From: Candidatus Methanoperedens sp.
Lineage (GTDB): Archaea; Halobacteriota; Methanosarcinia; Methanosarcinales; Methanoperedenaceae
Assembly (NCBI GenBank): GCA_041494705.1
Contig: JBGQBI010000001.1
Coordinates: 420,001 to 452,000 of the forward strand
Length of the DNA: 32,000 nt
Reading direction: 5' to 3'
Made by a program: the position numbers and the translations under genes. The notes beneath the pieces are model-generated. The model worked only from the letters and a program-made list of their open reading frames with translations, had not been told where the DNA came from and made no database searches. Shown here in pieces: positions 1,403 through 26,624 of this stretch. The first letter of the stretch is position 1. Every line of letters starts with the position of its first letter.

Positions 1403-2239
1403 TCATTGTGCCATAAACTTTTCAGCCATTTCGATTTCCTTTTTTCCTCCTGCATATATTGGAGTTAACTCATCGATAGCTTTCGGCTTGATTGACAGGA
1501 TATCAATTTTCCCATTGCTGATTGCCCCGCCTGCATCGGTAATTATTTTTCCCATCGGGTTTGCCTCAAACAATAACCGAAGCTTTCCTTTTTCTTTTCC
1601 CCGAAATCCCGGGTAGGTGAACACACCGCCTTTGTGGAGAATCTGGTGCATATCCGCGACAAAGGAGCCGGAAAAGCGCAGTTTGTAACCTTCAGCCTCA
1701 AGATTTTCGATAAACCTGGCATGCTGCGGGAGGTAATCCTTCCTGAGTGCGCCGGGTGCGTAGAGCTTGCCGTCCGGGATTTTGATATCCCGCTGCGTGA
1801 GGTTGAACATTCCCTTTTCATCCATGACAAAATCATGCACGCCGTTGCCGGTTGTCAGCGTCAGCGTGGTAAGTGGTCCGTAAAGGATGTACATTGCAGC
1901 AATCATGGTATTGCCGGGGGCTAGCACACTGCCCGGATAAATTCCGATAATCGTCCCGACCGCGAGATTCACGTCAATCAGGGAAGAGCCGTCAAGAGGG
2001 TCAATGACAACCCCGAACTCGTTTTTCGACCTCTCAATCTCGATAATGCCGGGCTGTTCTTCAGTCGCAATATACCGCACCAGCCTTGTTTTTTTAAGCC
2101 CGTTAATTAAAACTTCATCTGCCCATTTATCAAGAGCCATCTGCTCTTCGCCGTAAATGTTTTTTGTCCCTGCTTTATTCTGGCCCCGCAAGAACCCGTT
2201 CTTTATTGTTTGTCCCTGCTCGCTGAAGAACAAAATCAA
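1403..2239 (-). CDS. fbp: Fructose-1,6-bisphosphatase, class I; 5' end uncertain
   Basis: FBPase class I blocks are present: [25 protein letters not shown], and the [24 protein letters not shown] metal/sugar site. The tracked start is a TTG, but FBPase-like N-terminal sequence ([19 protein letters not shown]) continues in frame upstream to 2293-2296 with no ATG/GTG/TTG. Confidence 0.85.
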
Positions 2240-2427
2240 TTCTGATAATCCTGCATCGGTATTGGTCTGTAAAAGGAACTCTTTCAGGTTAATGCTCTCA
2301 TCCTCTTGTTTTTTGATTTCAATTTAAGCAATCAGGCTCTAAATAGTTATCGTTTTATGCCCTGCGTTATTTCATTCAAGAAAAATTTATATACCGTTGA
2401 TTTTAATAAAGAGATGGTGTTAATATT

Positions 2428-6833: not shown

Positions 6834-7304
6834 ATGATTGTTATCGGAATCGACCCCGGGCTTGCGACAGTGGGCTTTGGCGTCATACAAACCGAAAAAA
6901 ACAATATAACTCCTGTAAGCTATGGAGTCATAAGGACATCGGCTGAAAAACAATATCCTGAACGCCTGCTGGAAATATACACCGGGGTCAATGAGCTTTT
7001 TGGAAAATACGTACCTTCAGCGGTGGCGGTTGAAAAACTTTTTTTCAATAAGAATGTTACAAACGCCATGAGCGTGAGCGAAGCAAGGGGCGTTATAGTC
7101 CTGGCGGCAGAGCAAAATCATATACCCGTATTTGAATATACCCCGAACGAAGTTAAGCAGGCAATAACGGGTTCAGGGCGGGCGGATAAGAAACAGATGC
7201 AGGAGATGATTAAGAGGCTGTTGAACTTAGACGAGATACCAAGACCTGATGATGCGGCGGATGGGCTTTCGATTGCTTTATGTCATATAAATATAATGAG
7301 ATAA
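6834..7304 (+). CDS. ruvC: Crossover junction endodeoxyribonuclease RuvC (bacterial type)
   Basis: MIVIGIDPG (Asp7), AVEKLFF (Glu67) and PDDAADGLSIALCH; 156 aa. Confidence 0.9.
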   Translation: MIVIGIDPGLATVGFGVIQTEKNNITPVSYGVIRTSAEKQYPERLLEIYTGVNELFGKYVPSAVAVEKLFFNKNVTNAMSVSEARGVIVLAAEQNHIPVFEYTPNEVKQAITGSGRADKKQMQEMIKRLLNLDEIPRPDDAADGLSIALCHINIMR

Positions 7305-7307
7305 TAG

Positions 7308-7895
7308 ATGATTTCGCATATTTATGGTGAAATAGCGCAGTGCGGTGAAACTTTTGTGATTATCGATGTGGGAGGCATAGGCTATCAGGTGAATGTTACA
7401 AAGCCGGCAGTGCAGGAACTCATCAATAAAAAAGAAAAGGTAAAACTGTACACCCACCTTAATGTCAGGGAGGACGCGCTTACACTCTATGGATTTCTAA
7501 ACGCAAGCGAGCTTACGATGTTCAGGCTCCTTATCAGCGTGACAAGAATAGGGCCCCAAATCGCAATGAACATATTGTCTCAGATAAAAATTGAGGAGCT
7601 TGCGTCTGCAATTTTCCGCGAGGATGAAAAAGTCCTTACCAGTATTTCTGGAGTTGGCACAAAAAATGCCAAAAGGCTGATACTTGAACTCAGGGACAAA
7701 ATGAAAAAGAAAATGGAAGGATTTGTTTTCACGGGTACAAGCAATATTAATTATGACGCCGTTAGCGCTCTTGTTTCTCTCGGATTCGGACAGCGTGAGG
7801 CTCAGGAAGCGGTGGAAGCCTCATCGTCTGATATAAAAGAACGCACAGTTGAAGTATTGATTAAAGCAGCGCTTTTGAAATTGAAAGAACGTTAA
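7308..7895 (+). CDS. ruvA: Holliday junction branch-migration complex subunit RuvA
   Basis: MISHIYGEI...[10 protein letters not shown] is the OB domain and [16 protein letters not shown] is the HhH motif. The C-terminal domain III reads [16 protein letters not shown]. 195 aa. Confidence 0.9.
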
Positions 7896-7900
7896 AGAAC

Positions 7901-8887
7901 ATGGAAGAAAGAATAATAGCGCCGGTGTCGTTAAACGAAGAAAAGGAAGATACAACCATCCGCCCGACAAGGCTTTCTGAATTTATCGGGCAGAATGCAC
8001 TCAAGGATTCGCTAAAAATATTTATCGAAGCTTCAAAAAAAAGGGAAGAACCGCTCGACCACGTCCTTTTCTCAGGACCCCCCGGCCTTGGGAAGACAAC
8101 GCTTGCACACATCATAGCGCACGAGATGGGCTCGGATATAAAAAGCACCTCAGGCCCAGTGCTTGAAAAACCGGGAGACCTTGCAGCAATACTAACGACA
8201 CTCAAGAAGGGAGACATTCTATTCATCGATGAGATTCACCGCCTGAACTCTGTTATTGAAGAAATACTGTATCCTGCAATGGAAGATTTTGAAATAGACG
8301 TCATGATAGGCGAGGGACCAAGCGCCCGCTCCATAAAACTCACACTAGAGCATTTCACCCTCATAGGCGCCACAACCAGGGTAGGACTTCTTGGCTCGCC
8401 ATTCAGGGACAGGTTCGGCTTTATTTCAAGGCTTAACCTGTATTCAGTGCCTGAACTTGTGGAAGTGGTATCACGAAGCGCATCCATCCTGCAAATCCCT
8501 ATGACGCAGGAGGGGTCACTTGAGATTGCCAGGCGAAGCCGCGGGACACCACGCATTGCCAACAGGCTGCTGCGGCGCGTATGGGATTTTGCTCTCGTGA
8601 GGGCAGAGGGGAAAATCATGCAGGATGTTGCGGATGCAGCGCTAACCATGCTGGGAATCGACAGGCTCGGGCTGGATGAGCTTGACAGGCGCATCCTTAC
8701 TATAATTTCAGGGGATTTCGGGGGAGGACCTGTCGGTGTCAAGACAATTGCAATATCAGTCGGCGAAGAGGTCAGGACTATTGAGGAAGTTTACGAGCCC
8801 TACCTTATCCAGATAGGGTTTATCAAACGGACTCCCCAGGGGCGGGAGACAACGCCTGCTGCAAAGGAACATGTGGGAATTGGATAG
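7901..8887 (+). CDS. ruvB: Holliday junction branch-migration ATPase RuvB
   Basis: [11 protein letters not shown], Walker [10 protein letters not shown], Walker B ILFIDEIH, sensor [19 protein letters not shown], and the C-terminal winged helix [15 protein letters not shown]. Confidence 0.95.
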
Positions 8888-9007: not shown

Positions 9008-9241
9008 ATGCAATCTGTAATAATGAGCACGAAGGGACAGGTCATCATACCTGCCAGCATCAGGAAAAAGTATGGGCTTAAAAAGGGCGTGAAACTGATT
9101 ATCGAAGATGAGGATAGCTATATCAAAATTATTCCGAAGACGACTGACCTTACAAAACTTTGTGGTATATTGAAAGGGCACCTTGATTCTAGCTCTGTAA
9201 GAAAACAAATTGAAGAGATGCGCAAAGAAGACAGGTATTAG
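9008..9241 (+). CDS. vapB: AbrB/SpoVT-family antitoxin (VapB-like)
   Basis: STKGQVIIPASIRKKYGLKKGVKLIIEDED is a swapped-hairpin AbrB/SpoVT motif. Its stop directly abuts the start of the PIN gene (TAGATG). Confidence 0.75.
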   Translation: MQSVIMSTKGQVIIPASIRKKYGLKKGVKLIIEDEDSYIKIIPKTTDLTKLCGILKGHLDSSSVRKQIEEMRKEDRY

Positions 9242-9649
9242 ATGAACAGGATTCTAATCGATACAATGCATATAACCGACCTTCTGATAGAAGATTCTCA
9301 TTTTGAGTTGGCGCAGGCTGTGCGGAATAAAAAGATTACAGGATTGGTTTCAGTCATTACACTCACAGAATTGGTTAAGACCTCTGGCATGAAAAATAAA
9401 GACCTGATGTACAGTATCCTGTATCAGTTAATCTCTTCAGACCTTATTTTTGTAGATGTTACCCAGCAAATAGCAATACGCGCTGGTGAATTGCGTTTGA
9501 AATATGATATACCAACAGCAGATTCGCTGATTGCTGCTACCGGTATGGTTGAGAATGTCAGGCATATCCTGACGGATGATGAGCACTTTGAGGCTACGAA
9601 GAATTTGATCAAGCCGATTGATTTGAAGGCTGCGATGAGGTTGGTTTGA
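9242..9649 (+). CDS. vapC: PIN-domain ribonuclease toxin (VapC-like)
   Basis: 135 aa with the conserved acidic residues in PIN positions: ILIDT (Asp7), TLTELV, TADSLIAAT and LTDDEHF. Confidence 0.75.
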   Translation: MNRILIDTMHITDLLIEDSHFELAQAVRNKKITGLVSVITLTELVKTSGMKNKDLMYSILYQLISSDLIFVDVTQQIAIRAGELRLKYDIPTADSLIAATGMVENVRHILTDDEHFEATKNLIKPIDLKAAMRLV

Positions 9650-10248: not shown

Positions 10249-11817
10249 CTACACCCCCACATCCATCTCCTCATCCGCCCTCACTTCCGGCGCCTCATGC
10301 TTCTCCTCATACTTTCTCTGCGCCTGCCACATCGCCGGGGCATCCTTGCTCCTGCCCTTCGTATCGCTCGTTAGTCTCTTTCTTATCCTCACAAGCGCGG
10401 GCGTATTTATCGCAACGCCTGAAATTATCGCCTGACCTTTCGCCAGGGATGGAAGCTCTGAAATCATGTCCCTGCTTGCAGACTCGATGCTCTGCGCAAT
10501 CTGCTGCTGGTCAGTGGGGTTGATTATCCGCATAGTTATCTGCGTCATGCATTGCGAGAGCGAATCCGCGTCAAGTTTACTCGGGCGCTGGGAAACAAGA
10601 CATACACCCACGCCGAACTTCCTGCCCTCAGAAAGTATGGTCTTGAGGATGCCCTTGGATTTAGCCTCGCCGCTGTGGGGCGCGAACCTGTGCGCCTCCT
10701 CAATGACCACAAACACAGGATAGGGAAGGAACTTGTCCACATGTGATTCATTGTACTTATTGTTCTCAGTCCCCTCACGCGCATCGAATAACCGGCGCAG
10801 CATGACAGAGGCTATCAACTGCTGATCTGTCACTTCGATTCCTGAGACGTCCATAATCGTAAGCTGTCCGACTTTGAAATAATCGGCAAGAGGAATGGTC
10901 TGGAAGTCGTCGAATATAGAGCCGTACAGTTTCCCGAACCGCCACAAGATGCCCTCTATCGTGGACTCATTAGAGGAATCCCGCAGTGCTTCTATCTCCT
11001 GCTTTAATTCATTCCGGGTGAACTTTTTCTTGCTGTTGTTTTTGAGATTGTGATATGCAGACCGGAAGAGCGTCTTCATCTTATCCGACATCGTTCCGTC
11101 GTCCATTATGCTGATAAAATCGCTAACTGAAAGGTCACTTATCCGAATTTTTATAGTCTCAGGTTTCACAGTTTTTACCTTTGGACGATACGATGACGTG
11201 ATGAATTCGGGCATATTCTGTATTTCGCCGAGCGTGGAGTATTCGCCGTGCGGGTCAAAAATCAGGACAGGAGCCATGTTGTAGGGTTTCAGAAGCTCTT
11301 CCACCAGGACTCCCACAGTGTACGATTTTCCCGCACCGGTAGAGGCGATAACCGACACATGCTGGCTTACTATATCCCTCACGGATAACACAATTTCCGT
11401 ATCCTCTCCAAAAACAGTTCCTACAAAGGCAGAGCCTGAGGCACCTGCTTTTACTTTACTGATGTCTTTCAGGACATCTGCTACTGCGCGCTCAATTTTA
11501 GCGCCGCAGGGGGGATTTGTTCTCGGATTAATGAACTCGCCCATCGCCGCATCAAAATAACCGACAACAGCGGCTGAATAAGAGTAGTATTTAAAATCCT
11601 GCGGGTCAAGACCGTAAAACCCTGAAATCTCATTGGCATCAAGTTCATTATCCAGAAGGAACTCCTGTGGATATTGGTTCAGCGGCTCGCCATGTTTTAC
11701 CCTGCACAGGATTTTTTTACCCGCTTCATGATAACATGCGAACATACCGGCAGGCAGCCGCTCACCCGATATGAAGGTGAATCCTTCCTCATCCGAATAG
11801 TTGACAGTCCCGATCAT
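10249..11817 (-). CDS. herA: HerA bipolar DNA helicase/ATPase (FtsK-HerA superfamily)
   Basis: It has an N-terminal barrel-like region, Walker A IASTGAGKSYTVGVL, LIFDPHGEY, Walker B FVVIEEAHRFAP, and GRKFGVGVCLVSQRPSKLD. It is collinear with Sulfolobus HerA as I remember it. Confidence 0.9.
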   Translation of the reverse strand: MIGTVNYSDEEGFTFISGERLPAGMFACYHEAGKKILCRVKHGEPLNQYPQEFLLDNELDANEISGFYGLDPQDFKYYSYSAAVVGYFDAAMGEFINPRTNPPCGAKIERAVADVLKDISKVKAGASGSAFVGTVFGEDTEIVLSVRDIVSQHVSVIASTGAGKSYTVGVLVEELLKPYNMAPVLIFDPHGEYSTLGEIQNMPEFITSSYRPKVKTVKPETIKIRISDLSVSDFISIMDDGTMSDKMKTLFRSAYHNLKNNSKKKFTRNELKQEIEALRDSSNESTIEGILWRFGKLYGSIFDDFQTIPLADYFKVGQLTIMDVSGIEVTDQQLIASVMLRRLFDAREGTENNKYNESHVDKFLPYPVFVVIEEAHRFAPHSGEAKSKGILKTILSEGRKFGVGVCLVSQRPSKLDADSLSQCMTQITMRIINPTDQQQIAQSIESASRDMISELPSLAKGQAIISGVAINTPALVRIRKRLTSDTKGRSKDAPAMWQAQRKYEEKHEAPEVRADEEMDVGV

Positions 11818-12329
11818 GTTTCCCTCTCAATATATTTCCGGACAAGCCTTAACATCGCGCTGCATTCAGGGAATCCTGCCTCAACCTGGCTAACCATGGA
11901 AAGAAGAACGTTACGTGGAAGTGCATCCCGGCTGGCATGAAAATACGCGACACTGGGTTTACCGTTTATGATATGGAATTGCTTTAGTTCTTCAGTTTTC
12001 AAAATATCAATCGTATCCTTCACCTCAGGCGGCGAGTCGATATTGTATTCCACGCTCCCGTTACGTATTACTCCAAGTCCGTGAATGACATAATAGCTGT
12101 TCCTGAAATCTTCATTGAATGGAGCATACTTGGGCTGCATTGAAGGTTCGATATAAGGAATCAGGTCTTCACGTATCGAATGCGTGATGTTTTTAATGAC
12201 CCCGACAATTATTCCCTCATCTTTTTCAATTTTAACGAACCTGCCGATGCGTTCCTTCTGGGCATCCGGCTGTATTTTCACGATATACGTATTCGCATCA
12301 TCAACCCTGATTATGTCTCCTAATACCAT
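11814..12329 (-). CDS. Extra operon member: stand-alone HAS-barrel-like small protein (hypothetical)
   Basis: 171-aa ORF. Its stop overlaps the herA start (ATGA), and its start lies 4 nt after the nurA stop with AAGGTGAT as SD. The N-terminus (LGDIIRVDDANTYIVKIQPD...IGRFVKIEKDEGIIVGVIKNI) follows the beta-barrel pattern seen at HerA N-termini. Confidence 0.7.
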   Translation of the reverse strand: MVLGDIIRVDDANTYIVKIQPDAQKERIGRFVKIEKDEGIIVGVIKNITHSIREDLIPYIEPSMQPKYAPFNEDFRNSYYVIHGLGVIRNGSVEYNIDSPPEVKDTIDILKTEELKQFHIINGKPSVAYFHASRDALPRNVLLSMVSQVEAGFPECSAMLRLVRKYIERET

Positions 12330-12333
12330 TGAA

Positions 12334-13482
12334 TCACCTTCTCATTGTCTTATGGAAATGCTTGGCGCTCTTATTAATCTTAATCCCGTGAGCCTTGCAG
12401 AAATTATCAAACATCCCGTAAAAAAGGTCATGCTCGTTCATCCGTATCACTGCGGCATCATGCGCCCGCATAAGTATATCGGGATAATTGCCCCGGATAA
12501 CACATAGGGCGCGAATGATATCCGCGAGCTTATCGATATCTTCTTTTTCATGTGCCCATGCGGGGAATTCAACACGCGAAGGAAGGCCGTTGCTCAGCCT
12601 CATGTAAAAAAACGCTATGCTATTCTTAAAAGGCCCGTAGTTATCCAGCACAGAGCTTGAAACATCGCCACGCTTGTCATCCCTGTCGCAGAGAAAAGCC
12701 GCTGTCCTTTCTCCCCACAAAAGATGGGAAAAAAGATGCGTATCCGAGAGCTTTGTCTTTTTCAACCCGAAGAGGAAATGCATCATAAGAGTGATGTCGC
12801 GCGGCATTGTGGTATCAATAAAACCGACAACGGTATTGCGTGTTTCCCTGGAAGCCGAGAGTAGCTTCACGATTGCATTGATGTATATCTCCCTGATATT
12901 CCTGTTAAGGACATTTATATGGGACAGGATAAGGGCGCCATCCAGGAGGACATAGAGCTTTTCATGTTCTTTCATTAGCCGTATGATGGTATCGCATTCC
13001 ATTGAAAAACGGCGCGCATCAACATATTCACTCCCGAATGAATACACGCTTGCAGCTTCAAACTCGCCGGGTGTAATGATGGAAGCTCCAGTTTCCTGTT
13101 TATAATCGCTATCGTCGGTATGCCTGTTAAATACGCTTGAGGTCTGGATTACTGCGATAGGAATCTCAAAATTCTTGTCCGAATATATCTGGCTTCCGTC
13201 AACAGCCCCCACTGCAACTCCTGAAAGGACAGAATCCACCCACTCCATCGCTTCGTGGCGGTTTTTCCAGTTAAAAGGAAAAGGATGAATGAGTTTTCCG
13301 GTTTCAAGGAATTTCGCTCCGCTGTATGGGGGAAGCCTTTCATTCATCGAAATATCGATATTCCTGAACTTTGTGAGCTCATTCCTGTACTCTTCTGTCA
13401 GTTCAGAGCGTTCAATATCATAAGAAATTATCGAATCAAGTTTGGCATCAAACTGTAAAGAGATGTTTTTCAGGTCAATCAT
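12334..13482 (-). CDS. nurA: NurA 5'-3' nuclease
   Basis: VGAVDGSQI and YVLLDGALI are NurA-domain catalytic Asp motifs. The 382-aa size and the position next to herA, rad50 and mre11 fit NurA. Confidence 0.8.
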   Translation of the reverse strand: MIDLKNISLQFDAKLDSIISYDIERSELTEEYRNELTKFRNIDISMNERLPPYSGAKFLETGKLIHPFPFNWKNRHEAMEWVDSVLSGVAVGAVDGSQIYSDKNFEIPIAVIQTSSVFNRHTDDSDYKQETGASIITPGEFEAASVYSFGSEYVDARRFSMECDTIIRLMKEHEKLYVLLDGALILSHINVLNRNIREIYINAIVKLLSASRETRNTVVGFIDTTMPRDITLMMHFLFGLKKTKLSDTHLFSHLLWGERTAAFLCDRDDKRGDVSSSVLDNYGPFKNSIAFFYMRLSNGLPSRVEFPAWAHEKEDIDKLADIIRALCVIRGNYPDILMRAHDAAVIRMNEHDLFYGMFDNFCKAHGIKINKSAKHFHKTMRR

Positions 13483-13592
13483 AAAGGGTTACGCCCCTTT
13501 ATGACGTCCCGAGTCACGCCTCGGGAGGGCGTGTTGGGGTATGCTTTGCATACCCCTTCGTTTGACAAAAACCTTCATAAAGTTTTTCATGT
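13479..13592 (-). repeat. Modular hairpin element, short copy, filling the whole rad50-nurA intergenic space
   Basis: 13479..13534 is 56/56 identical to the reverse complement of 18754..18809. It contains a GGGGTATGC-AAA-GCATACCCC hairpin. The termini supply the rad50 TGA and the nurA ATG, and a 33-codon ORF (13489..13590) spans the element. Confidence 0.85.
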
Positions 13593-15896
13593 CACAACCC
13601 TGCTTTCGCCATTGATTTTTTCGATTTTCACAACATGTCCGTATTTTTCATTGAAAGTATCATCATGAGAAATAACGAAAATCTGTTTGAAACCTTTGAT
13701 ATTCATTATCTGCTCCGAGAGGTTCTCTCTTCGTATTTCATCCATATTCTGCGTGGGCTCATCGAGAAACACGAAATCCGAGTTGGAAAGCATCTTAAGA
13801 AGCGCAAGTCGCAGAGCAAGCGCTGCCCCCATTTTCTCGCCTCCGCTTAGCTGCTGGAAATTTTTCTCCTCGCCGCTCTCGGTAATTATTATCCCGTAGT
13901 CCTCGCTCCATCGCAATTCCTGTGAGAAGTCGTCCATGATAGCGCAGTAAAGACCGTTCGCCTCTTCGCTTATCTCACCTATCAACTCAAGAACGATATG
14001 CTGTGCCGAATCCCGCAGTGTCTCGCGGATAAACTTCGCGTATTCACCGAACCTCTTCTCGTTTTCAAGCTTTGCCTCAAATTCACGTATCTTTGCAAGA
14101 TAGCTCATCATTTCAGCTATCTCTTTATCAAGTTTCAGGAACTGGCGGTCTTTTTCTTTTATTTCCACCTCAAAACCGCGAACTTTTGCCCCAAGCTCCA
14201 CGCACTCATGTTCGGCGCCCTCAAGCGCCTTTGCGCTAAAACCTAAAGCCATCCCGTCGTATAGCTTTTGGGATTCTGTAAGTGCTTTCTCTTCCTCAAA
14301 GATTGTTTTTCCAAGCCTCTCGCATTCATTCTTGTATTCCACATACTTTTCTGCAAGCGGCTGGTTCTGCACATATTTCTTGTAGACAGGTTCAAGTTCT
14401 GCGAGCTTTTTCTTCACCTCGCTTGCATCCATATCAAGAGAATTGTATTTTTCAAGCGCAGTTTTAAGTAGTGATGCCTCGCTTTCTTTTTCAGGGATTT
14501 TTTTGATTTCCCCGGATATTTTTTCAACATCCTGCGCACCTTTTTTGGCAAGCAGTTCCAGAGCCTTCATTTTACTTCGCGGGTCGCCCAGAACCTTTAG
14601 TTCTGAGTTCATGGCTTTCAGTGTGTCTTGCGCAGCCCCAAGTCTTTTCTGCGCGTCCGCAAGCTGCTCCCTGAAATATGAAGAGAAATCCGCCACTGTG
14701 CTGCACCTTATCCCTTTTATCACAGGGCAAAGGTTCTCAGTGCCGGCGATGCTCATCCTGCCTTTAATATCCTTAATCTCATTGAGCGCGACAGCATGTT
14801 CCCCTTTTATGGTTTCAAGCTTCTCTTCAAGCTCATCCTGCTTTTCCAATAGGGGTATGAGAGCCGTCTTTTCACAAGCGTTCTTTTCTATCTCGGCTTT
14901 CAACGCCTCAAGACTCATGCGTTTTTCATTCAATCCTGCAAGCTCATTTTTAATCCCGTTTAACCTGTCCTTCAGCACATCACGTTCTTTTCGCATGCCC
15001 TCAAGCTTTTCCTGCTTCTTTCTCTCTTCTTCGTATCTTTCTTTATCTGCCAAAAGTGCGGATACGGTCTTCTGTGCTTCTTCGGATTTCTTAAGCTCGT
15101 CTTTTGACTTTTCAAGAAGCTGCTTCAATCCCTCTATTTTTATGCGACCCTGCTTTATCTCATTTTCAAGCTTATCCATCGCATCCTTCTGCTTTTTGAG
15201 CGCATCCCGCCTGCCCTTAGCTACCTTCAGGGTCTCGCTGCACTCCTTCAGGATTTTCTTTATGCTCTCAATGGTCCTGTTAAGTTCATCCCTCTCAATC
15301 TTTTTTTGCTCATAATTCTCTGTCCTGATGCGCAGTTTCTCGATGTCATTCTCTATGCTCCTGACACCTTCATCTATCAGGCTCATCGCGTTCCTGAGAT
15401 TCTCGTAGGCATTCCTGTACTCGTCAACCTTGAGTATCTCATCGAATGTCTTTCTTCTCTTCGTTGGGGTATCCATGAATGCTGCCGTCAGCATGCCCTG
15501 CGGCACTCCAATAGTGTTTTCAAAAATATGCGGCAACTCATCTTCAGTGGATACAGGGAATATGTTGCTGATGAGCCAGGAGAGAACGTCTTTTTTGCCT
15601 GTGATATGGAGATTCTCTCCCTCGACACTGTATTCTCCACCGAGTTTTCTTGTAAGTATGTAAGTCAAATTATTTGCGAGAACTTCAACAGAAACCATAC
15701 CTGATTTTTCCCCGCGGCGCAGGAAGTCCGCATCTTTGTAGGGCAGGTAGTCAAACAGGACGTATCCGATTGCTTCGAGGATGGTGGTTTTCCCGTGCCC
15801 GTTCTGGCCGCAGATGCCGTTTATGCCCTCCTTGAACTCGATGGTTGCATGACGGTAGGATTTGATGTTTTTTAATTCCACGGATTTGATAAGCAT
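13587..15896 (-). CDS. rad50: Rad50 ATPase (SMC-like), short coiled coil, non-canonical hook
   Basis: Walker A GQNGHGKTT, a long Glu/Lys-rich coiled coil, signature LSGGEKMGAALALRLAL, Walker B FVFLDEPTQNMD, and H-loop ISHDD. The start abuts the mre11 stop. Confidence 0.9.
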   Translation of the reverse strand: MLIKSVELKNIKSYRHATIEFKEGINGICGQNGHGKTTILEAIGYVLFDYLPYKDADFLRRGEKSGMVSVEVLANNLTYILTRKLGGEYSVEGENLHITGKKDVLSWLISNIFPVSTEDELPHIFENTIGVPQGMLTAAFMDTPTKRRKTFDEILKVDEYRNAYENLRNAMSLIDEGVRSIENDIEKLRIRTENYEQKKIERDELNRTIESIKKILKECSETLKVAKGRRDALKKQKDAMDKLENEIKQGRIKIEGLKQLLEKSKDELKKSEEAQKTVSALLADKERYEEERKKQEKLEGMRKERDVLKDRLNGIKNELAGLNEKRMSLEALKAEIEKNACEKTALIPLLEKQDELEEKLETIKGEHAVALNEIKDIKGRMSIAGTENLCPVIKGIRCSTVADFSSYFREQLADAQKRLGAAQDTLKAMNSELKVLGDPRSKMKALELLAKKGAQDVEKISGEIKKIPEKESEASLLKTALEKYNSLDMDASEVKKKLAELEPVYKKYVQNQPLAEKYVEYKNECERLGKTIFEEEKALTESQKLYDGMALGFSAKALEGAEHECVELGAKVRGFEVEIKEKDRQFLKLDKEIAEMMSYLAKIREFEAKLENEKRFGEYAKFIRETLRDSAQHIVLELIGEISEEANGLYCAIMDDFSQELRWSEDYGIIITESGEEKNFQQLSGGEKMGAALALRLALLKMLSNSDFVFLDEPTQNMDEIRRENLSEQIMNIKGFKQIFVISHDDTFNEKYGHVVKIEKINGESRVVT

Positions 15897-17192
15897 TTAT
15901 TCCCCCATGCGTGAAAGTAAGGTCTGTTGGGGATTTTCCGTCTTATCTGTCCTGGTATTATTTTCTGAGGCACCGCTTTTTATTTTCGCAAAGCTCCATC
16001 TCAATTCTTTAAGGACTGAGTTCACTTCGACATTCGCAGCAGCCATCTTTTTCACTTCGACCATTATCTTTACGACATCATCCACATTATCCCTGTACCT
16101 CCCGTCAAGTTTTATCCGGTCTGAGAATACACGAAGCTCTATCTGCTCGCGCGTGAGCCCGCGCACGTCCCCCTCTTTGATGGCATACGGCGAATTTGTC
16201 CGCTGGAGCTTGACCTCGGACCAAAGGGGTTTAAATTGTTCGATGAGCATATCCCTGATGCGCTCCAGGTTCACATCGGATTTCGGGAAGTTCATCTCTC
16301 CATAGAGCATAAGTTCGACAAGCGGTGCCTTATCTGATTGGACTGTGGTCTCTCTTTCGATTTTTGCGTTGACTTTTGAATAAAGGTCTTCGGGAGTGGC
16401 AATATCGCTCATATCAAGCCTGATGCGCCTGACGGGACGGGTAATGGGGGATATGAGTTTCGCACCATTATCCCTGACATGATAGAACCCTTTTGGCAGG
16501 TCGTACTCGTTCAAGGACATCATTTCAATGCTGCCGGGGTTGAAAACCCATTCATCAAGTTCATATTGCGTATGATAATGCCCGAGCGCAAGGTAATTCA
16601 CTGTTTCCTTCAGAGGGAGGAGAGAATTGTATGGAATTTCCCCCGCAACTTCCTGCTTTACCTGTCCTTCCATGCCAAAGTGCATCATAAGGATGGTGAA
16701 TTTTTCTCCCCTTTCTGCATTTATTTTTTTTATCTCATCAGCTATCTCTGGGATTATGGAAGCTGTGCTTGCGCCAAGGTATTTCACCCCGAAGATGCGG
16801 AAATTATCCAGCTCGACGAAGTCGCCCATCAGTTTCACACCATTGGCTTCTTTCAGCCTTATGAGCCGGAGCAGCCCCTGTGAATTGAGTATCTCAAGCC
16901 AGCTCTTGCCGTCCTGGTGGAAGGCGAGGTCGTGGTTCCCTTCGATGGCATAGACCGCAGTGGCAGGGCTTTTCGCTTTCAGTTCAGAGAGAACCTTATA
17001 CGCCTGCTCATATGTGGGCGCGTTTATGTTCCGTTTGTGGAACAGGTCGCCTGAGATGAGGATGAACTCGACTTTGTGGTCGATGGCGTATGTTATGACT
17101 GAATGGAAGGCGCGGGCGTAGTCGCGGAAGCGCTCGATGAGTCCGTACTGGGCATATCCGAGGTGGAAGTCGCTCGCGTGCAGGAAGTTCAT
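15897..17192 (-). CDS. mre11: Mre11 nuclease (calcineurin-like phosphoesterase)
   Basis: FLHASDFHLG, SGDLFH, IEGNHD, MMHFG and LGHYH are phosphoesterase motifs I-V. It lies directly upstream of rad50. Confidence 0.9.
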   Translation of the reverse strand: MNFLHASDFHLGYAQYGLIERFRDYARAFHSVITYAIDHKVEFILISGDLFHKRNINAPTYEQAYKVLSELKAKSPATAVYAIEGNHDLAFHQDGKSWLEILNSQGLLRLIRLKEANGVKLMGDFVELDNFRIFGVKYLGASTASIIPEIADEIKKINAERGEKFTILMMHFGMEGQVKQEVAGEIPYNSLLPLKETVNYLALGHYHTQYELDEWVFNPGSIEMMSLNEYDLPKGFYHVRDNGAKLISPITRPVRRIRLDMSDIATPEDLYSKVNAKIERETTVQSDKAPLVELMLYGEMNFPKSDVNLERIRDMLIEQFKPLWSEVKLQRTNSPYAIKEGDVRGLTREQIELRVFSDRIKLDGRYRDNVDDVVKIMVEVKKMAAANVEVNSVLKELRWSFAKIKSGASENNTRTDKTENPQQTLLSRMGE

Positions 17193-17280
17193 GGGTAGTT
17201 AAAAGGGCGTCAGGGTTAAAAATGGTTGTGGGAGCGGGGTGAAAGTGATGGTTTTGTTAGACAGGTCTGATATTAATAGT
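17185..17280 (-). repeat. Copy A of the duplicated mre11 promoter/5'UTR/first 8 nt
   Basis: It aligns with 18143..18237 at 80 of 96 positions (hand alignment, 1 gap). It includes the ATGAACTT of mre11, an identical GAGCGGGGTGAAAGT core and a TATA-like CTGATATTAATAGT. Confidence 0.8.
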
Positions 17281-17282
17281 CA

Positions 17283-18125
17283 TTATTTCAACTTCCTGGT
17301 TTCTTTTTTCCCTGTGATACTGATATAATTCTCTGAGCTTACCACTTTTCTTCCTGTTTTCTTCTCAAGTTCCTTTCTTGCATTTCCTGCAATCATGCCT
17401 CCCTCTTTTGAAGAGTCGAAACACTCATTGAATCCTTTTGAGTCCCTGGATTTAGTGATTTCTGTAGTAGATTTTTCCCCGAGCATGGTGAAAATCAATT
17501 CCAGGTCGTTCATATGGTCTCTCAGGTTCTGGTTTTTATTCATCGGGTCTAAGCTTTTTATTTTTCTATGTTCCTTGATTGACTTCCCGAAAATCGCTTT
17601 AGAAATCTCATTTGTAAGGATGGCAAAATCTCTTTTTTCGTCAACTCCTCTTTCTTTCCATTCATCCGTAAGTTCCTGCCTGATAGCAATCCCCCGCAGC
17701 CTTTTTTCTATCCAGTCTTCTGGATAACCTTTGAGTTCGTAATACTCTTTTGCCCTATCCTGCGCCAGTTCGGGATTTTCTATTTCCTGTATCCTTTCGT
17801 ATCCTACTTTTGCCAGCCATCTTTTGAAGGGTTCAGCTTTTTTTGAAGGGATGGACTGGATTATCCGGAACATTGATTCGGTGTTTGCGCAATCTGTTTC
17901 GTATTTTTTGCCGTCGGATGATGGCAATTTCAGTTGTACCCAAATTGGGGACAACTCAAGTTGTTTAAATTCCCTGTCCTTGAGTTTGCCCCAGTATTGT
18001 CGTGGCGTTGGACTATCTGTTAAAGCTTCCACAACATCAACAACCGAGAAATACCACTGGTTATCATGCCATGTTCGTCGTATTTTAGCTCCTTCGAAAA
18101 CTATCAGTGCGTCTTTTGAATCCAT
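17283..18125 (-). CDS. Bro-N domain protein with DinD-like C-terminal region (DNA-damage-inducible protein D family-like)
   Basis: The N-terminus (FEGAKIRRTWHDNQWYFSVVDVVEALT...YW) matches the Bro-N pattern. The C-terminal half (RDFAILTNEI...NQNLRDHMNDLELIFTMLGE...GNARKELEKKTG) parallels E. coli DinD as I recall it. Confidence 0.65.
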   Translation of the reverse strand: MDSKDALIVFEGAKIRRTWHDNQWYFSVVDVVEALTDSPTPRQYWGKLKDREFKQLELSPIWVQLKLPSSDGKKYETDCANTESMFRIIQSIPSKKAEPFKRWLAKVGYERIQEIENPELAQDRAKEYYELKGYPEDWIEKRLRGIAIRQELTDEWKERGVDEKRDFAILTNEISKAIFGKSIKEHRKIKSLDPMNKNQNLRDHMNDLELIFTMLGEKSTTEITKSRDSKGFNECFDSSKEGGMIAGNARKELEKKTGRKVVSSENYISITGKKETRKLK

Positions 18126-18142: not shown

Positions 18143-18237
18143 AAGTTCATGGATAGTAAAGAGGGCGTTATGGTTAAAAAGGGTTAGGAGAGCGGGGTGA
18201 AAGTAATGTTTTTGTGAGATATCTCTGATATTATAGT
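18143..18237 (-). repeat. Copy B of the duplicated mre11 promoter/5'UTR/first 8 nt, now driving the Bro-N/DinD-like gene
   Basis: See copy A. The minus-strand sense ends ATGAACTTTAACAAGGGGAAATAAC-ATG. This is a 7-codon mre11-derived mini-ORF (MNFNKGK*) followed 1 nt later by the Bro-N gene ATG. Confidence 0.8.
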
Positions 18238-18272
18238 TGAGAATCTAATTTTCCAAACATATTCCTTTAACA

Positions 18273-18304
18273 CTTCGCGTCCTTTGCGCCCTTTGTGGTG
18301 ATAC
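18273..18304 (-). repeat. Short intergenic repeat, inverted partner of 8911..8942
   Basis: The reverse complement GTATCACCACAAAGGGCGCAAAGGACGCGAAG aligns with GATATCACCGCAGAGGCGCAAAGTTCGCAAAG at roughly 25 of 31 positions by hand. Confidence 0.45.
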
Positions 18305-18368
18305 GCTCCCTGCTGAATGTCAAATCCAACCGCAACTTATTTTTAGTATAATCAAATAATATATCAGC

Positions 18369-18512
18369 ATGGACATACGGCAGTGTAAGAAAGGCTGTGT
18401 GGAATGCACGCCATGTGAAGATTGCGGAGCGCCTCAGTTCAATATAAATGTGGTATGTGGAAGCTGCTTAGGTTGCGAGACCCCGCACGTCGAAATGTAC
18501 GAGTGGAAATAG
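18369..18512 (+). CDS. Small cysteine-rich protein (47 aa, 8 Cys), not in the ORF track
   Basis: Hand translation gives MDIRQCKKGCVECTPCEDCGAPQFNINVVCGSCLGCETPHVEMYEWK*. The Cys spacing is Cx3Cx2Cx2Cx2C...Cx2Cx2C. An AT-rich TATA-like TTTTTAGTATAAT sits about 20-30 nt upstream of the ATG, consistent with a leaderless transcript. Confidence 0.4.
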   Translation: MDIRQCKKGCVECTPCEDCGAPQFNINVVCGSCLGCETPHVEMYEWK

Positions 18513-18590: not shown

Positions 18591-18809
18591 ACATGAAAAA
18601 CTTTAAGAAAGGTTTATCAAAAACTGTTGCGTCAGTTTACACCGCGAACACGTATGGCTTCGCCATACGTAAACCTTTAAGAAAGGTTTATCAAACGACA
18701 GGTATGCTTTGCATACCTGAACACCACGTAAACCGGGGTATCGGTTTACGTGGACACGCCCTCCCGAGGCGTGACTCGGGACGTCATAAAGGGGCGTAAC
18801 CCTTTATGA
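18591..18809 (+). repeat. Modular hairpin element, long copy, immediately upstream of and including the trmY start codon
   Basis: At least five perfect stem-loops, starting at 18650, 18670, 18699, 18725 and 18784. A 21-nt direct repeat CTTTAAGAAAGGTTTATCAAA occurs at 18601 and 18675. The 3' 56 nt are identical to the nurA-proximal copy. The tracked 68-aa ORF 18593..18799 lies wholly inside the element. Confidence 0.85.
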
Positions 18810-19390
18810 AAGACTTCATAATTATCGGTCATAAAGCAGTTACAGCTCCCTTTTCCCTGAATGACCTTCCCGGCGCAGCGGGACGCATGGACATCCTGTG
18901 CAGGTGTGTTAATGCCGCGCTATTTCTTTCCCATGACTTAAGAAGAGATATCCGCGTGTATCTTATCCTCAAGGGAGAACCTGCTCCGCCGAAGCTCATC
19001 CGTTTTGACGGCCTCGCAGTCAGGTATTTGAGCCCTGATGAGAGAAGCGCAGCCTCGCTTATAAAAAAAGCCCTTGAGAAGAATGCGCAGGACTTCTGGA
19101 CAGAATCCATGCCCGGGGTGAGCATCAGGAAAGGTGATTTTGGCGACCTTTTGAGTGAACTGAACAAGAAAATAACCTATCTGAGGGAAGACGGCGAGGA
19201 TGTGCGGGGAAAGAGCTTCGAAGAGCCATTGTTCGTTCTTGGCGACCATCTTGGCATGACCGATGATGAGGAGAAATTAATCGAGGGATATAAGAATGAG
19301 GTGGTGAGCGTGGGACCCCTTTCTCTGCATGCCGACCACTGCATCACCATATTGCATAATGAGATGGACAGGGTAGAGAAACATATTTAG
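18806..19390 (+). CDS. trmY: tRNA (pseudouridine54-N1)-methyltransferase TrmY (SPOUT, DUF358)
   Basis: FIIIGHKA...DLPGAAGRMDILCRCVNAALFLSH, then LGDHLGMT, then SLHADHCITILHNEMD, matching the TrmY family pattern. It sits adjacent to pus10. Confidence 0.8.
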   Translation: MKDFIIIGHKAVTAPFSLNDLPGAAGRMDILCRCVNAALFLSHDLRRDIRVYLILKGEPAPPKLIRFDGLAVRYLSPDERSAASLIKKALEKNAQDFWTESMPGVSIRKGDFGDLLSELNKKITYLREDGEDVRGKSFEEPLFVLGDHLGMTDDEEKLIEGYKNEVVSVGPLSLHADHCITILHNEMDRVEKHI

Positions 19391-24915: not shown

Positions 24916-26022
24916 TCATCCAAGCACCTTCTCCATCACCCCAATCGCCCTTCTCAAATTCCCCTCAGAAACTGCATACGAAATCCTGATATGCCCCTTC
25001 CCGTTCTCCCCGAAAGCCGAGCCCGGAGTAACAATCACGCCTTTTTCCAGCAATTTCTGCGGCGCATCCTTATCCGCAACCTCAGGGAATGCATAGAAAG
25101 CCCCCTGCGGCTTAACGCATTTAATACCCATTGAAGCAAATCCGGAAAGTAAGATATCCCTTCTTGCCCTGAAACTCTCGCGCATCTCGCTCACGCACTC
25201 CTGCGGCCCCACAATCGCAGCCAGCGCCGCCTTCTGGGCGATTGAGTTGGCGCATGCCTGGATGTACTGGTGCACTTTCAGCATCTGCTCGATATATTCA
25301 TTCCTCGCGGCGGCATAACCGATGCGCCAGCCTGTCATGGCGTACGTCTTTGAGACTGCGTTGATTGTAATTACTTTATCAGTGAACTGCGCCGGGCTTA
25401 CATGCTCGCCCTCGTAGATGAAATGCTCATAAACCTCGTCTGAGATTATCGTAATATCATTGTCCTCCGCTATCCCTGCCAGCGCTTTAATCTCCTTTTT
25501 TGTCTGGACAGTCCCTGTGGGATTTGAAGGGGAATTGATAATCAATGCAACGGTTTTAGAAGTAATGGATTCGTTCACGGCTTCAGGCGTTAATGTCAGC
25601 GCTTCGCCAAGAGGTATGCCCACCACCTTTCCCCCCGCAATCTTTGTTAATGGCGCGTAGGATACAAATCCCGGGTCAGGTACCAGAACCTCATCACCGT
25701 TATCTACCAGTGATTGCAGCGCCAGGTGAAGCGCTTCAGAGGCGCCCGATGTGACGATAATTTCGTTTGGCTCGACTGTAAAATGGTTCTCACGCTCAAA
25801 TTTCCTGCACAGGGCTTCCCGAAGCTCGGGAATCCCGAGGTTTGCGGTATAGCCTGTGAAACCTTGATTTATTGCATCAACTGCCGCTTTTTTAATATGT
25901 TCAGGTGTGTCGAAATCAGGCTGGCCCAGCCCGAGATTGATGGCGTTCGGACCCGCGCCTTCAAACATCTTCCTGATACCAGAGATGTCAATACTCTTTA
26001 CGCGTTGCGAAAACATGAGCAT
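24916..26022 (-). CDS. Pyridoxal-phosphate-dependent aminotransferase, class I/II (aspartate aminotransferase-like)
   Basis: INSPSNPTG, SDEVYE, and SKTYAMTGWRIGY with the PLP lysine. The ATG at 26022 overlaps the upstream stop (TGATG). Alternative starts are GTG 26025 and ATG 26016. Confidence 0.85.
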   Translation of the reverse strand: MLMFSQRVKSIDISGIRKMFEGAGPNAINLGLGQPDFDTPEHIKKAAVDAINQGFTGYTANLGIPELREALCRKFERENHFTVEPNEIIVTSGASEALHLALQSLVDNGDEVLVPDPGFVSYAPLTKIAGGKVVGIPLGEALTLTPEAVNESITSKTVALIINSPSNPTGTVQTKKEIKALAGIAEDNDITIISDEVYEHFIYEGEHVSPAQFTDKVITINAVSKTYAMTGWRIGYAAARNEYIEQMLKVHQYIQACANSIAQKAALAAIVGPQECVSEMRESFRARRDILLSGFASMGIKCVKPQGAFYAFPEVADKDAPQKLLEKGVIVTPGSAFGENGKGHIRISYAVSEGNLRRAIGVMEKVLG

Positions 26023-26624
26023 CACTCAAAAACCGTATGCCTTTTCTTCAATTCCGCTTCGCTTGCCCCTGTCCTGACCATCAACTCTGATACGACTGCA
26101 TCAAGAAAAACAAGCGCGGTTATTTCAAAAATAGTCCCAAGAGGCGCAAGCTCCGGATACCCCACCATCCGCCGTTCATGATAATCCTCGTAAATGACAT
26201 CTTCTTTAGGTCTCCCCGGGACTATCACAACGATATCTGAAATCTTCCCGAGGGTTGAATCCTTATTCGAGGTTATGACCGCCAGTTTCGAACCTATTTT
26301 TTTAGCGATTCCGCCAAGGTTTGCAATGGAAGGCGTCTCACCCGAGCCTGAAACCGCGATTACGAGGTCATCGGGTTGTACTGCGGGAGTTGTAGTCTCG
26401 CCAACCACGAAAACATTAAATCCCATATGCATAAGCCGCATCGCAAAAGCCTTTGCTGCAAGACCCGACCTTCCCGCCCCCATCAGGAATATTCGCTTCG
26501 AGCATATTATTTCATCGACCAGTCTTTTAACCGAACCGGTGTCGAGTTTTGAAGAGACTTTCTTAATGTGTTTTGCAATAAGGTTCATCGATGCGATTGT
26601 AGCTTTGCATTCTTTATTTACCAT
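26022..26624 (-). CDS. phi: SIS-domain 6-phospho-3-hexuloisomerase (PHI)
   Basis: RIFLMGAGRSGLAAKAFAMRLMHMG, VSGSGET and LAVITS. The 200-aa size is typical of archaeal PHI. Confidence 0.75.
   Translation of the reverse strand: MVNKECKATIASMNLIAKHIKKVSSKLDTGSVKRLVDEIICSKRIFLMGAGRSGLAAKAFAMRLMHMGFNVFVVGETTTPAVQPDDLVIAVSGSGETPSIANLGGIAKKIGSKLAVITSNKDSTLGKISDIVVIVPGRPKEDVIYEDYHERRMVGYPELAPLGTIFEITALVFLDAVVSELMVRTGASEAELKKRHTVFE

Follow-up and report, generated by a model that had tools for sequence, protein, structure and literature searches.

A hairpin repeat inserted between rad50 and nurA of Candidatus Methanoperedens: a likely non-autonomous mobile element with a putative translational relay

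The rad50-nurA spacer

The DNA analysed here (the window) is a 32,000-nt stretch of the genome of a methane-oxidising archaeon, Candidatus Methanoperedens sp. (assembly GCA_041494705.1, contig JBGQBI010000001.1, positions 420,001 to 452,000 of the forward strand) that carries mre11, rad50, nurA and herA on its minus strand. We show that the spacer between rad50 and nurA is an insertion at the ATGA in which the rad50 stop codon and the nurA start codon once overlapped. We consider it likely that the insert is a 108-nt non-autonomous mobile element from a Methanoperedens-specific family of modular hairpins that insert beside ATG in a fixed orientation, and that an open reading frame (ORF) running through it acts as a relay coupling translation to nurA.

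In the window this element, copy A, reads GTGACATGA[AAAAC...CCCTTTATGA]TTGACCTG, and the covariance model of the family, R1, matches it with 63.5 bits. The TGA of rad50 (13589-13587) overlaps, in the context ACATGA, the ATG (13590-13588) of a 33-codon ORF that translates to MKNFMKVFVKRRGMQSIPQHALPRRDSGRHKGA; its stop codon, TAA (13491-13489), is in frame with the nurA ATG (13482-13480), with only the codons CCC TTT between them. These features had been described in an earlier sequence-only reading of the minus strand and are all present. The same reading had noted a perfect 10-bp terminal stem burying the nurA AUG, and this too is confirmed: two arms of 10 nt (13479-13488 and 13495-13504), 100% complementary, enclose a 6-nt loop, and the stem amounts to -14 kcal/mol with the start codon inside it. 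The hairpin holds stop codons in all three frames (TAA 13501-13499, TAA 13491-13489 and TGA 13481-13479). The description of the spacer as structured was likewise upheld on folding: the minimum free energy (MFE) of the 131-nt region is -57.4 kcal/mol against -33.4 +/- 3.3 kcal/mol for dinucleotide shuffles (z = -7.18), none of 200 of which folded as well.

A purine run, AAAGGGG, had been put forward as a Shine-Dalgarno (SD) motif for nurA. This putative SD lies 11 nt from the ATG, and the start codon as rebuilt by the element has no SD at a useful distance. Given this lack and the -14 kcal/mol stem, independent initiation at nurA should be poor. No bacterial-type terminator or promoter was found on the sense strand inside the element, and Rfam gave no match at gathering thresholds over the whole window, the best sub-threshold hits being small nucleolar RNA noise (E at least 0.26).

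A dispersed repeat family

The sequence-only reading had also called the spacer a repeat, which is correct: it is one copy of a dispersed, modular hairpin repeat, and a second and longer copy, copy B, precedes a trmY-like RNA methyltransferase gene elsewhere in the window. Copy B opens with ACATGAAAAAC, as copy A does, and closes with CCCTTTATGA. The last 56 nt are common to the two, the terminal hairpin and the 27-nt segment ahead of it recurring base for base at 18755-18809 on the plus strand. A scan with the signature TCATAAAGGGNNNNNNCCCTTTATGA against 185,579 genomes, one per prokaryotic species, returned at least 109 genomic stretches with the terminal hairpin; nearly all of the matches listed belong to Candidatus Methanoperedens metagenome-assembled genomes (MAGs) from many sites, and the loop is GCGTAA or its complement in 91 of the at least 109 stretches listed. 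The few bacterial matches among those listed have unrelated loops and contexts, no mycobacteria appear among the matches listed, and the viral contigs that we searched contained no match.

The commonest form is 80 nt long, ATGAAAAACTTTAAGAAAGTTTTATCAAAAGAA-GGGGTATGnnnCATACCCC-TATACG-TCATAAAGGGGCGTAACCCTTTATG(A). Longer forms, of 107 to 399 nt, carry extra nested palindromic modules, so that distinct elements span 79-399 nt. A second subfamily shares the ends of the first and has another terminal stem, CATAAAGCGAGGTGTCGCTTTATG (L013, 2013-2119, and L037, 2145-2410, both on the minus strand; L numbers are labels of compared loci), and its copies, too, are found at gene starts and have an SD upstream. 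The long elements contain fragments of this stem among their internal modules, which suggests that long forms arose from tandem or nested insertions that later fused. The sole tandem pair seen, in L085 (about 2137-2260, minus strand), shares one ATGA, the right end of one element being the left flank of the next; element ends are thus themselves targets for insertion.

The start of trmY gives a view of how these modules change over short distances. Where the window carries 213 nt, L017 carries 132, L041 131 and L076 80 nt, with largely different internal modules in genomes that are 92-95% identical to the window. The turnover or replacement of modules at this site is much faster than point divergence, and such wholesale swaps suggest that the elements are still moving or converting one another.

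Filled and empty sites

Four pairs of filled and empty sites with exact boundaries were found; they confirm that the element moves and that ATG is its target. The first is the rad50-nurA junction itself, filled in the window and empty in L110, a metagenome contig whose DNA is about 91% identical (NurA 93%). At the empty site, GGCATGATTGAC, the rad50 stop overlaps the nurA start directly as ATGA; the junction reads GTGGCATGATTGACCTG, in the wider context ...GTTGTGGCATGATTGACCTGAAAAAC..., and the BLAST blocks between window and L110 break exactly at 13587 and 13482. The nurA N-terminus, MIDLKNISLQFD, is the same in the window and in the element-free L110. In twenty more distant full-length nurA relatives the junction likewise lacks the element and reads ATGCTCGAC. 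Two other loci are filled at the same junction, L032 with a 107-nt version and L104 with an 80-nt version; the latter is missing the 27-nt module, which is identical in copies A and B. The earlier claim that the spacer supplies both flanking translation signals thus holds on one side. The rad50 stop and the ATGA overlap are native, for they are present in the empty site of L110, and it is the nurA start that the element end rebuilds.

The second pair is reciprocal to the first. An antisense copy lies within the last nurA codons of L110 (3531-3616, minus strand of that locus), where the window is empty; the window reads GTCTTATGGAAATGC and L110 reads GTCTTATG[AAAAACC...CCCTTTATG]GAAATGC. As a result the C-terminus of NurA is replaced in L110, ...HFHKTMRR giving way to ...HFHKGLRPFRTS (386 vs 382 amino acids), and the element is therefore also able to remodel protein ends. 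The third pair, at the start of a 200-amino-acid ORF, is empty in the window and filled in L002. The fourth is the trmY start, filled in the window and empty in L019, which reads TTTAATATA-21 nt-ATGAAAGACTTC; a TTTAATATA box 21 nt ahead of the ATG would correspond to the spacing of a leaderless archaeal mRNA.

These sites also refine the target. ATGA was considered and reduced to ATG, since the right-hand ATG is followed by G in the antisense L110 copy and by T in the subfamily copy of L013. ATG stands on the left flank of every copy, the antisense L110 copy included, apart from three in which the left flank is GTG and the right one ATG. That the orientation relative to ATG is constant even where the element is antisense to its host gene points to the mechanism, rather than to selection, as the source of the orientation. 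A target-site duplication of 13 nt (TGACATGAAAAAC at 13594-13582 and TGACCTGAAAAAC at 13477-13465) was rejected: the right-hand repeat consists of native nurA codons 2-6, present in every element-free relative, and the left-hand one is made up of the last bases of rad50 and the first of the element.

Association with gene starts

In about 88 of about 100 oriented copies the element ends on the start ATG of an ORF with 44 codons or more. The remaining 12% or so are found within 5' leaders, as upstream of purA in L011, or before very short ORFs. The 87 copies with both ends available represent about 41 distinct gene starts. Directly 5' of the left ATG stand the initiation signals of the host: GGTG or GGAGGTGA at the spacing of an SD, a TATA box spaced as for a leaderless mRNA, or the stop codon of an upstream gene. 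Gene starts make up 2.3% of all ATGs in the window and 21% of those that are outside coding sequence or at gene starts. If insertions fell on random ATGs and survived only at gene starts and between genes, about 21% would be expected at start codons against the 88% or so observed, and the enrichment is therefore real, if probably inflated by the exact-match search. Copies at the same gene persist across up to 7 MAGs, and the tagged genes have no evident common function.

The proposed relay frame

Among 79 distinct elements, the frame that begins at the left ATG stays open as far as the terminal hairpin in 77, whatever their length. With the 33 nt at the start and the 26 nt at the end, which the elements share, left out of the count, internal stop codons number 1 in 1782 codons of the relay frame, compared with 48 in 1773 and 40 in 1717 codons of the other two frames, over 29 length classes. 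For elements of at least 100 nt the relay frame is open in 39 of 40 and the other frames in 10 and 16 of 40. Differences in length between variants are mostly multiples of three.

The position of the relay stop relative to the gene start falls into few classes. In 56 of the 79 elements it is a TGA overlapping the gene ATG (a distance of -4 nt; stop at +1), in 14, both window copies among them, it is the TAA of the terminal loop, 6 nt before the ATG (-9), and in 7 it is a TAA 16 nt before the ATG (-19). Copy A has one T more than the 107-nt form in its left hairpin, which shifts its relay stop from the TGA of the ATGA overlap to the TAA at -9 and leaves the frame open. Measurements in Haloferax volcanii (PMC10666635) found re-initiation to be functional where genes overlap or are separated by a short gap, to be 40-60% lower at 13-14 nt and to disappear at 22-23 nt; the stop positions of the family (-4, +6 and +16 nt) all lie inside this range of termination-reinitiation.

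One and the same module is read in two frames among the copies, so that the ORF ends ...TPSRGVTRDVIKGRNPL or ...HALPRRDSGRHKGA, and never in the third, closed frame. It follows that openness, or passage of the ribosome, is what is conserved, and not a peptide, which is probably irrelevant in itself. Homologues of the relay ORF in protein databases are singleton hypothetical proteins of 41-117 amino acids without domains. The data argue strongly that the small ORF ending just ahead of the nurA ATG is a real and selected feature through which ribosomes would read before re-initiating. This coupled ORF is the best insight of the sequence-only reading, and the open frame and stop-codon positions across the family give it strong comparative support.

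Hairpins as probable DNA palindromes

A model-guided alignment of 53 distinct copies of the 80-nt type, which is fitted to the structure so that its figures lean that way, has standard pairs in 99.5% of pair cells and changes on both sides in 13 of 26 pairs, 7 of 8 in hairpin 2. None of 500 shuffles and no slid control came near the observed values for pairing and covariation. Independent folding of 21 different hairpin-2 sequences gave perfect stems of 8-9 bp in 20.

Pairs of the G·U type are very scarce, at 6 of 1359 cells and 67 of 3412 MFE pairs (0.4-2%), and the difference between sense and antisense MFE is -0.22 kcal/mol, which is to say that the two strands fold equally. These two observations give no strand-specific RNA signature and point to DNA palindromes rather than to a structure that acts only as RNA. 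The hairpins are most likely DNA-level signals for the enzyme that moves the element.

Two mutually exclusive 6-bp hairpins had been described as switch-like. The overlapping palindromes do exist, within the 27-nt module, and CACGCC/GGCGTG is compensated to CACGTC/GACGTG in four elements. CCCGAG/CTCGGG shows single disruptions only, and in the 128-nt forms a 21-nt insert divides it; there is no sign of switching between the two.

Table 1. Features of the window discussed in the text (positions within the 32,000-nt window)
Feature	Position	Strand	Remarks
herA	10249-11817	minus	Pfam HerA
separate HAS-barrel ORF	11814-12329	minus	Pfam HAS-barrel
nurA	12334-13482	minus	Pfam NurA; begins at the element's right-hand ATG
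empty target near nurA 3' end	12348-12353	minus	CCATAA (plus strand TTATGG); antisense copy here in L110
element copy A	13479-13590	minus	112 nt counting the ATGA at each end; net insertion of 108 nt relative to the empty site
terminal hairpin TCATAAAGGG-GCGTAA-CCCTTTATGA	13479-13504	minus	family signature; contains the nurA ATG (13482-13480)
relay ORF, 33 codons plus TAA	13489-13590	minus	homologous frame open in 77/79 distinct family members
optional 27-nt module	13507-13533	minus	overlapping palindromes CACGCC/GGCGTG and CCCGAG/CTCGGG
hairpin 2, GGGGTATGC-AAA-GCATACCCC	13536-13556	minus	perfect 9-bp stem; compensatory changes at 7/8 pairs in the family
left-end hairpin AAAAACTTT-ATG-AAGGTTTTT	13567-13586	minus	family helix 1 covaries between AU and CG
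native ATGA	13587-13590	minus	rad50 TGA overlaps the ATG that now opens the relay ORF; formerly the nurA start
rad50	13587-15896	minus	Pfam Rad50/SMC_N; upstream partner whose termination would feed the relay ORF
mre11	15897-17192	minus	Pfam Mre11-like Metallophos
element copy B	18593-18809	plus	213 nt plus ATGA; extra hairpin modules; folding z = -8.7
copy B relay ORF, 68 codons	18593-18799	plus	ends at the same TAA of the last loop as copy A
trmY-like RNA methyltransferase gene	18806-19390	plus	starts at the right-hand ATG of copy B; Pfam Methyltrn_RNA_2 from profile position 1
empty ATG start of 200-aa ORF (26022-26624)	26622-26624	minus	window TAAATGG; 83-nt element at the orthologous start in L002

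Neighbouring features

Several other features of the window lie close to the two copies. Between nurA and herA, the 171-amino-acid ORF at 11814-12329 (minus strand) has a weak HAS-barrel match and overlaps herA by 4 nt, with the same arrangement in L110; it may be an extra HerA-like N-terminal module in a gene of its own. A 91-nt direct repeat, 84% identical (17185-17275 and 18143-18233), extends over the 5' flank and the opening codons (ATGAACTT) of mre11 and likewise of a Bro-N-domain gene (17283-18125, minus strand) that is also present in L017, L041 and L076. The Bro-N gene would seem to have entered upstream of mre11 along with a second copy of the promoter and leader. A hypervariable spot at 18204-18329 holds about 620 nt more in L017 and L076 (about 93% identical) and about 1650 nt more in L041, the flanks being collinear. 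A cysteine-rich ORF of 47 amino acids (CKKGCVECTPCEDCGAP...CGSCLGCETP; 18369-18512, plus strand), which has no Pfam match, lies just upstream of the trmY promoter.

A complete operon of bacterial type, ruvC-ruvA-ruvB (6834-8887, plus strand), with full-length Pfam matches to RuvC, RuvA_N/HHH_5/RuvA_C and RuvB_N/RuvB_C, is found a few kb from mre11-rad50-nurA-herA in this archaeal genome. RuvABC is not the usual archaeal Holliday-junction machinery, and the operon was therefore probably acquired horizontally. Between ruvB and herA there is a VapBC-like pair (9008-9649, plus strand) of a MazE/AbrB-type antitoxin of 77 amino acids and a PIN-domain toxin of 135 amino acids, the toxin start following directly on the antitoxin stop codon.

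Discussion

The ancestral rad50-nurA overlap, ATGA, is the classical geometry of translational coupling, and with the 108-nt element now between the two genes rad50 still ends in an ATGA overlap and nurA still opens with an ATG. Insertion left the native ATGA on the left, the element end ...CCCTTTATG rebuilding the nurA start on the right. We propose that ribosomes ending rad50 would re-initiate at the left AUG, translate the 33-codon frame and unwind the four hairpins. They would then stop at the UAA (13491-13489) of the terminal loop, which precedes the nurA AUG (13482-13480) by 6 nt, and re-initiate at that AUG, so that translation of nurA-herA would remain coupled to rad50 as in the ancestral arrangement. 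For trmY, the relay would set out from a leaderless AUG. In the window strain the expression of nurA-herA thus probably still depends on the translation of rad50, by way of the relay. We would go further only tentatively, stopping a little short of belief: Methanoperedens may harbour an active and undescribed class of archaeal mobile elements that recognise ATG, in practice start codons, possibly by a hairpin-guided single-strand mechanism, and whose frame-robust ribosome relay, consisting of an open ORF and a terminal hairpin with three-frame stops and a replacement ATG, would make insertion almost neutral at SD-led, leaderless and overlapping-operon starts alike.

What had been suggested for this spacer is a regulator belonging to nurA-herA, an RNA switch, thermometer, ligand sensor or attenuator evolved for these end-resection genes. 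The strong fold (z = -7.2), the AUG sequestered in a -14 kcal/mol stem and the two overlapping alternative 6-bp helices are in its favour. However, identical modules stand before trmY and about 40 unrelated genes, no Rfam family matches, the nearly complete absence of G·U and the equal stability of the two strands are those of DNA palindromes, and neither compensatory changes nor other evidence speaks for helix switching. The element is also missing from the same junction in the closely related L110 and in 20 other full-length nurA relatives; the empty site largely refutes a locus-specific device, which we regard as very improbable. Still harder to credit is a functional micro-protein (MKNF...) co-expressed with DNA-repair genes. 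Its N-terminus, MKNFKKVLSK, is conserved and gene callers sometimes predict such ORFs, but the peptides run from 20 to 133 amino acids with C-termini that differ by frame, and the database matches are domainless singleton hypotheticals. A functional peptide was rejected because the same DNA module is read in two frames (TPSRGVTRDVIKGRNPL vs HALPRRDSGRHKGA).

Two further explanations accept that the repeat has spread. It could have been domesticated into a post-transcriptional regulon, retained because a common factor (an RNA-binding protein, RNase or small RNA) reads the terminal hairpin. The hairpin and its GCGTAA loop are near-invariant even at orthologous sites whose flanks are about 77% identical, the enrichment at gene starts exceeds neutral expectation, and copies persist at the same gene in up to 7 MAGs. 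Against this, the tagged genes share no evident function, the wholesale swapping of internal modules at 92-95% identity resembles turnover rather than conservation, and the symmetric, Watson-Crick-only stems point to recognition of DNA, not RNA; the invariance of the hairpin may itself reflect an exact-match search together with recent spread or gene conversion. We think this reading unlikely, if less so than any other alternative. The repeat could also be purely selfish, with hairpins serving as transposase or DNA signals, genes initiating alone and the open frame a by-product. That the stems behave as DNA palindromes, that about 12% of copies are not at long ORFs and that an antisense copy is tolerated at the 3' end of nurA in L110 would all agree with this. 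A by-product fails, however, to explain the contrast over 29 length classes between a single stop in 1782 codons and the 40-48 of the other frames, the use of modules only in their two open frames, length differences that are mostly multiples of three, or a rebuilt ATG that has no SD and sits inside a 10-bp stem, and we hold a repeat without a translational role to be quite improbable.

Some observations also weigh against the mobile relay element that we favour. The relay ORF ends early in two elements, at -34 and -88, and copy A itself has the +6-nt spacing rather than the commonest overlap of -4. Common descent of the copies makes the frame statistics less than fully independent, and we infer translation of the relay ORF solely from the conservation of its frame. 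With ATG at both ends, a 3-bp target duplication is indistinguishable from insertion beside an ATG. Only copies with a perfect terminal stem and A at position +4 could be retrieved by the genome search, which favours well-conserved copies that lie at start codons and may inflate the 88%. Finally, neither about 0.9 Mb of loci (where no left and right ends lay more than 420 nt apart) nor the protein matches yielded an autonomous partner or a transposase.

If the proposal is correct, the family would be the first archaeal counterpart of the principle seen in mycobacterial interspersed repetitive units (MIRUs), a mobile element neutralising its own insertion by translational coupling. It would also provide natural, replicated evidence for termination-reinitiation in archaea of the Methanosarcinales type at -4, +6 and +16 nt, leaderless starts included. 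In annotation, hundreds of Methanoperedens genes would show an upstream start that is 'false', along with hypothetical micro-ORFs and leaders that are long and structured. The element amounts to a ready-made cassette of bicistronic design, and the family raises the mechanistic question of which enzyme targets ATG.

Comparison with known systems

A literature search that included literal sequences, and whose coverage excluded subscription journals, returned no prior description of this family in Methanoperedens or in archaea, and the repeat family appears to be undescribed. The closest functional parallel is with MIRUs (Supply et al. 1997, as summarised in PMC12548453). To the extent that this summary describes them, the two are alike in that the copies lie at gene starts, co-oriented with the gene, and carry an ORF that starts from the native initiation signal and stops in overlap with, or right next to, the downstream start; the 56 of 79 Methanoperedens elements that end in an ATGA overlap follow the same logic. 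They differ in several respects. The host is an archaeon, and there is no evident sequence relationship, as judged by the signature scan rather than by alignment to a MIRU consensus. MIRUs are 46-101-bp units in arrays of variable-number tandem repeats, whereas the Methanoperedens element is mostly single-copy per site. It is built, moreover, from perfect palindromes that are nested and covary heavily, combines three-frame stops and an ATG in its terminal hairpin, and also serves leaderless and SD-led genes. By this comparison the family seems to work like a MIRU but is not one.

In the manner of its insertion the element resembles the PATEs derived from IS200/IS605 and the REP/REPIN sequences (HUH Y1 transposases), which are small and non-autonomous, have no terminal inverted repeats and carry a hairpin at each end; they, too, insert in a single orientation beside a short fixed motif, here the ATG on the left flank. 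No cognate TnpA, TnpB or RAYT turned up in the 0.9 Mb of loci or among the protein matches of the relay ORF, within which no RAYT-directed search was made. IS608 uses a guide tetranucleotide geometry, whereas the cleavage-site motif of the Methanoperedens element lies inside or against the hairpins and leaves no room for a guide tetranucleotide. REPs of the REP/BIME-RAYT type follow stop codons or stand in 3' UTRs, and the Methanoperedens copies are at start codons. Classical MITEs (miniature transposable elements with inverted repeats, such as Sulfolobus SM, Correia and ERIC; reviewed in PMC10969869) share its multiple copies, length below 400 bp, lack of a transposase gene, high degree of structure and presence/absence polymorphism. 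The Methanoperedens element differs from them in having no terminal inverted repeats, its ends ATGAAAAACTTT... and ...GTAACCCTTTATG not being reverse complements and all palindromes found in it being internal, and in its start-codon target and built-in relay ORF; the 2024 review describes no such archaeal element and none from Methanoperedens (PMC10969869).

The open frame has parallels of its own. Rickettsia palindromic elements are also palindromic repeats that are tolerated in translated regions by means of an open frame, but they are translated in frame within the host protein, whereas the Methanoperedens element is stopped in all frames within its last 26 nt and would work by termination and re-initiation. 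Archaeal overlapping gene pairs (Huber et al. 2019, 2023; PMC6728339, PMC10666635) are another parallel, since the ATGA overlaps and very short stop-start distances of the family (-4, +6 and +16 nt) agree with the range over which coupling was measured. There it is two resident genes that are coupled; in Methanoperedens the upstream 'gene' would be a mobile insertion.

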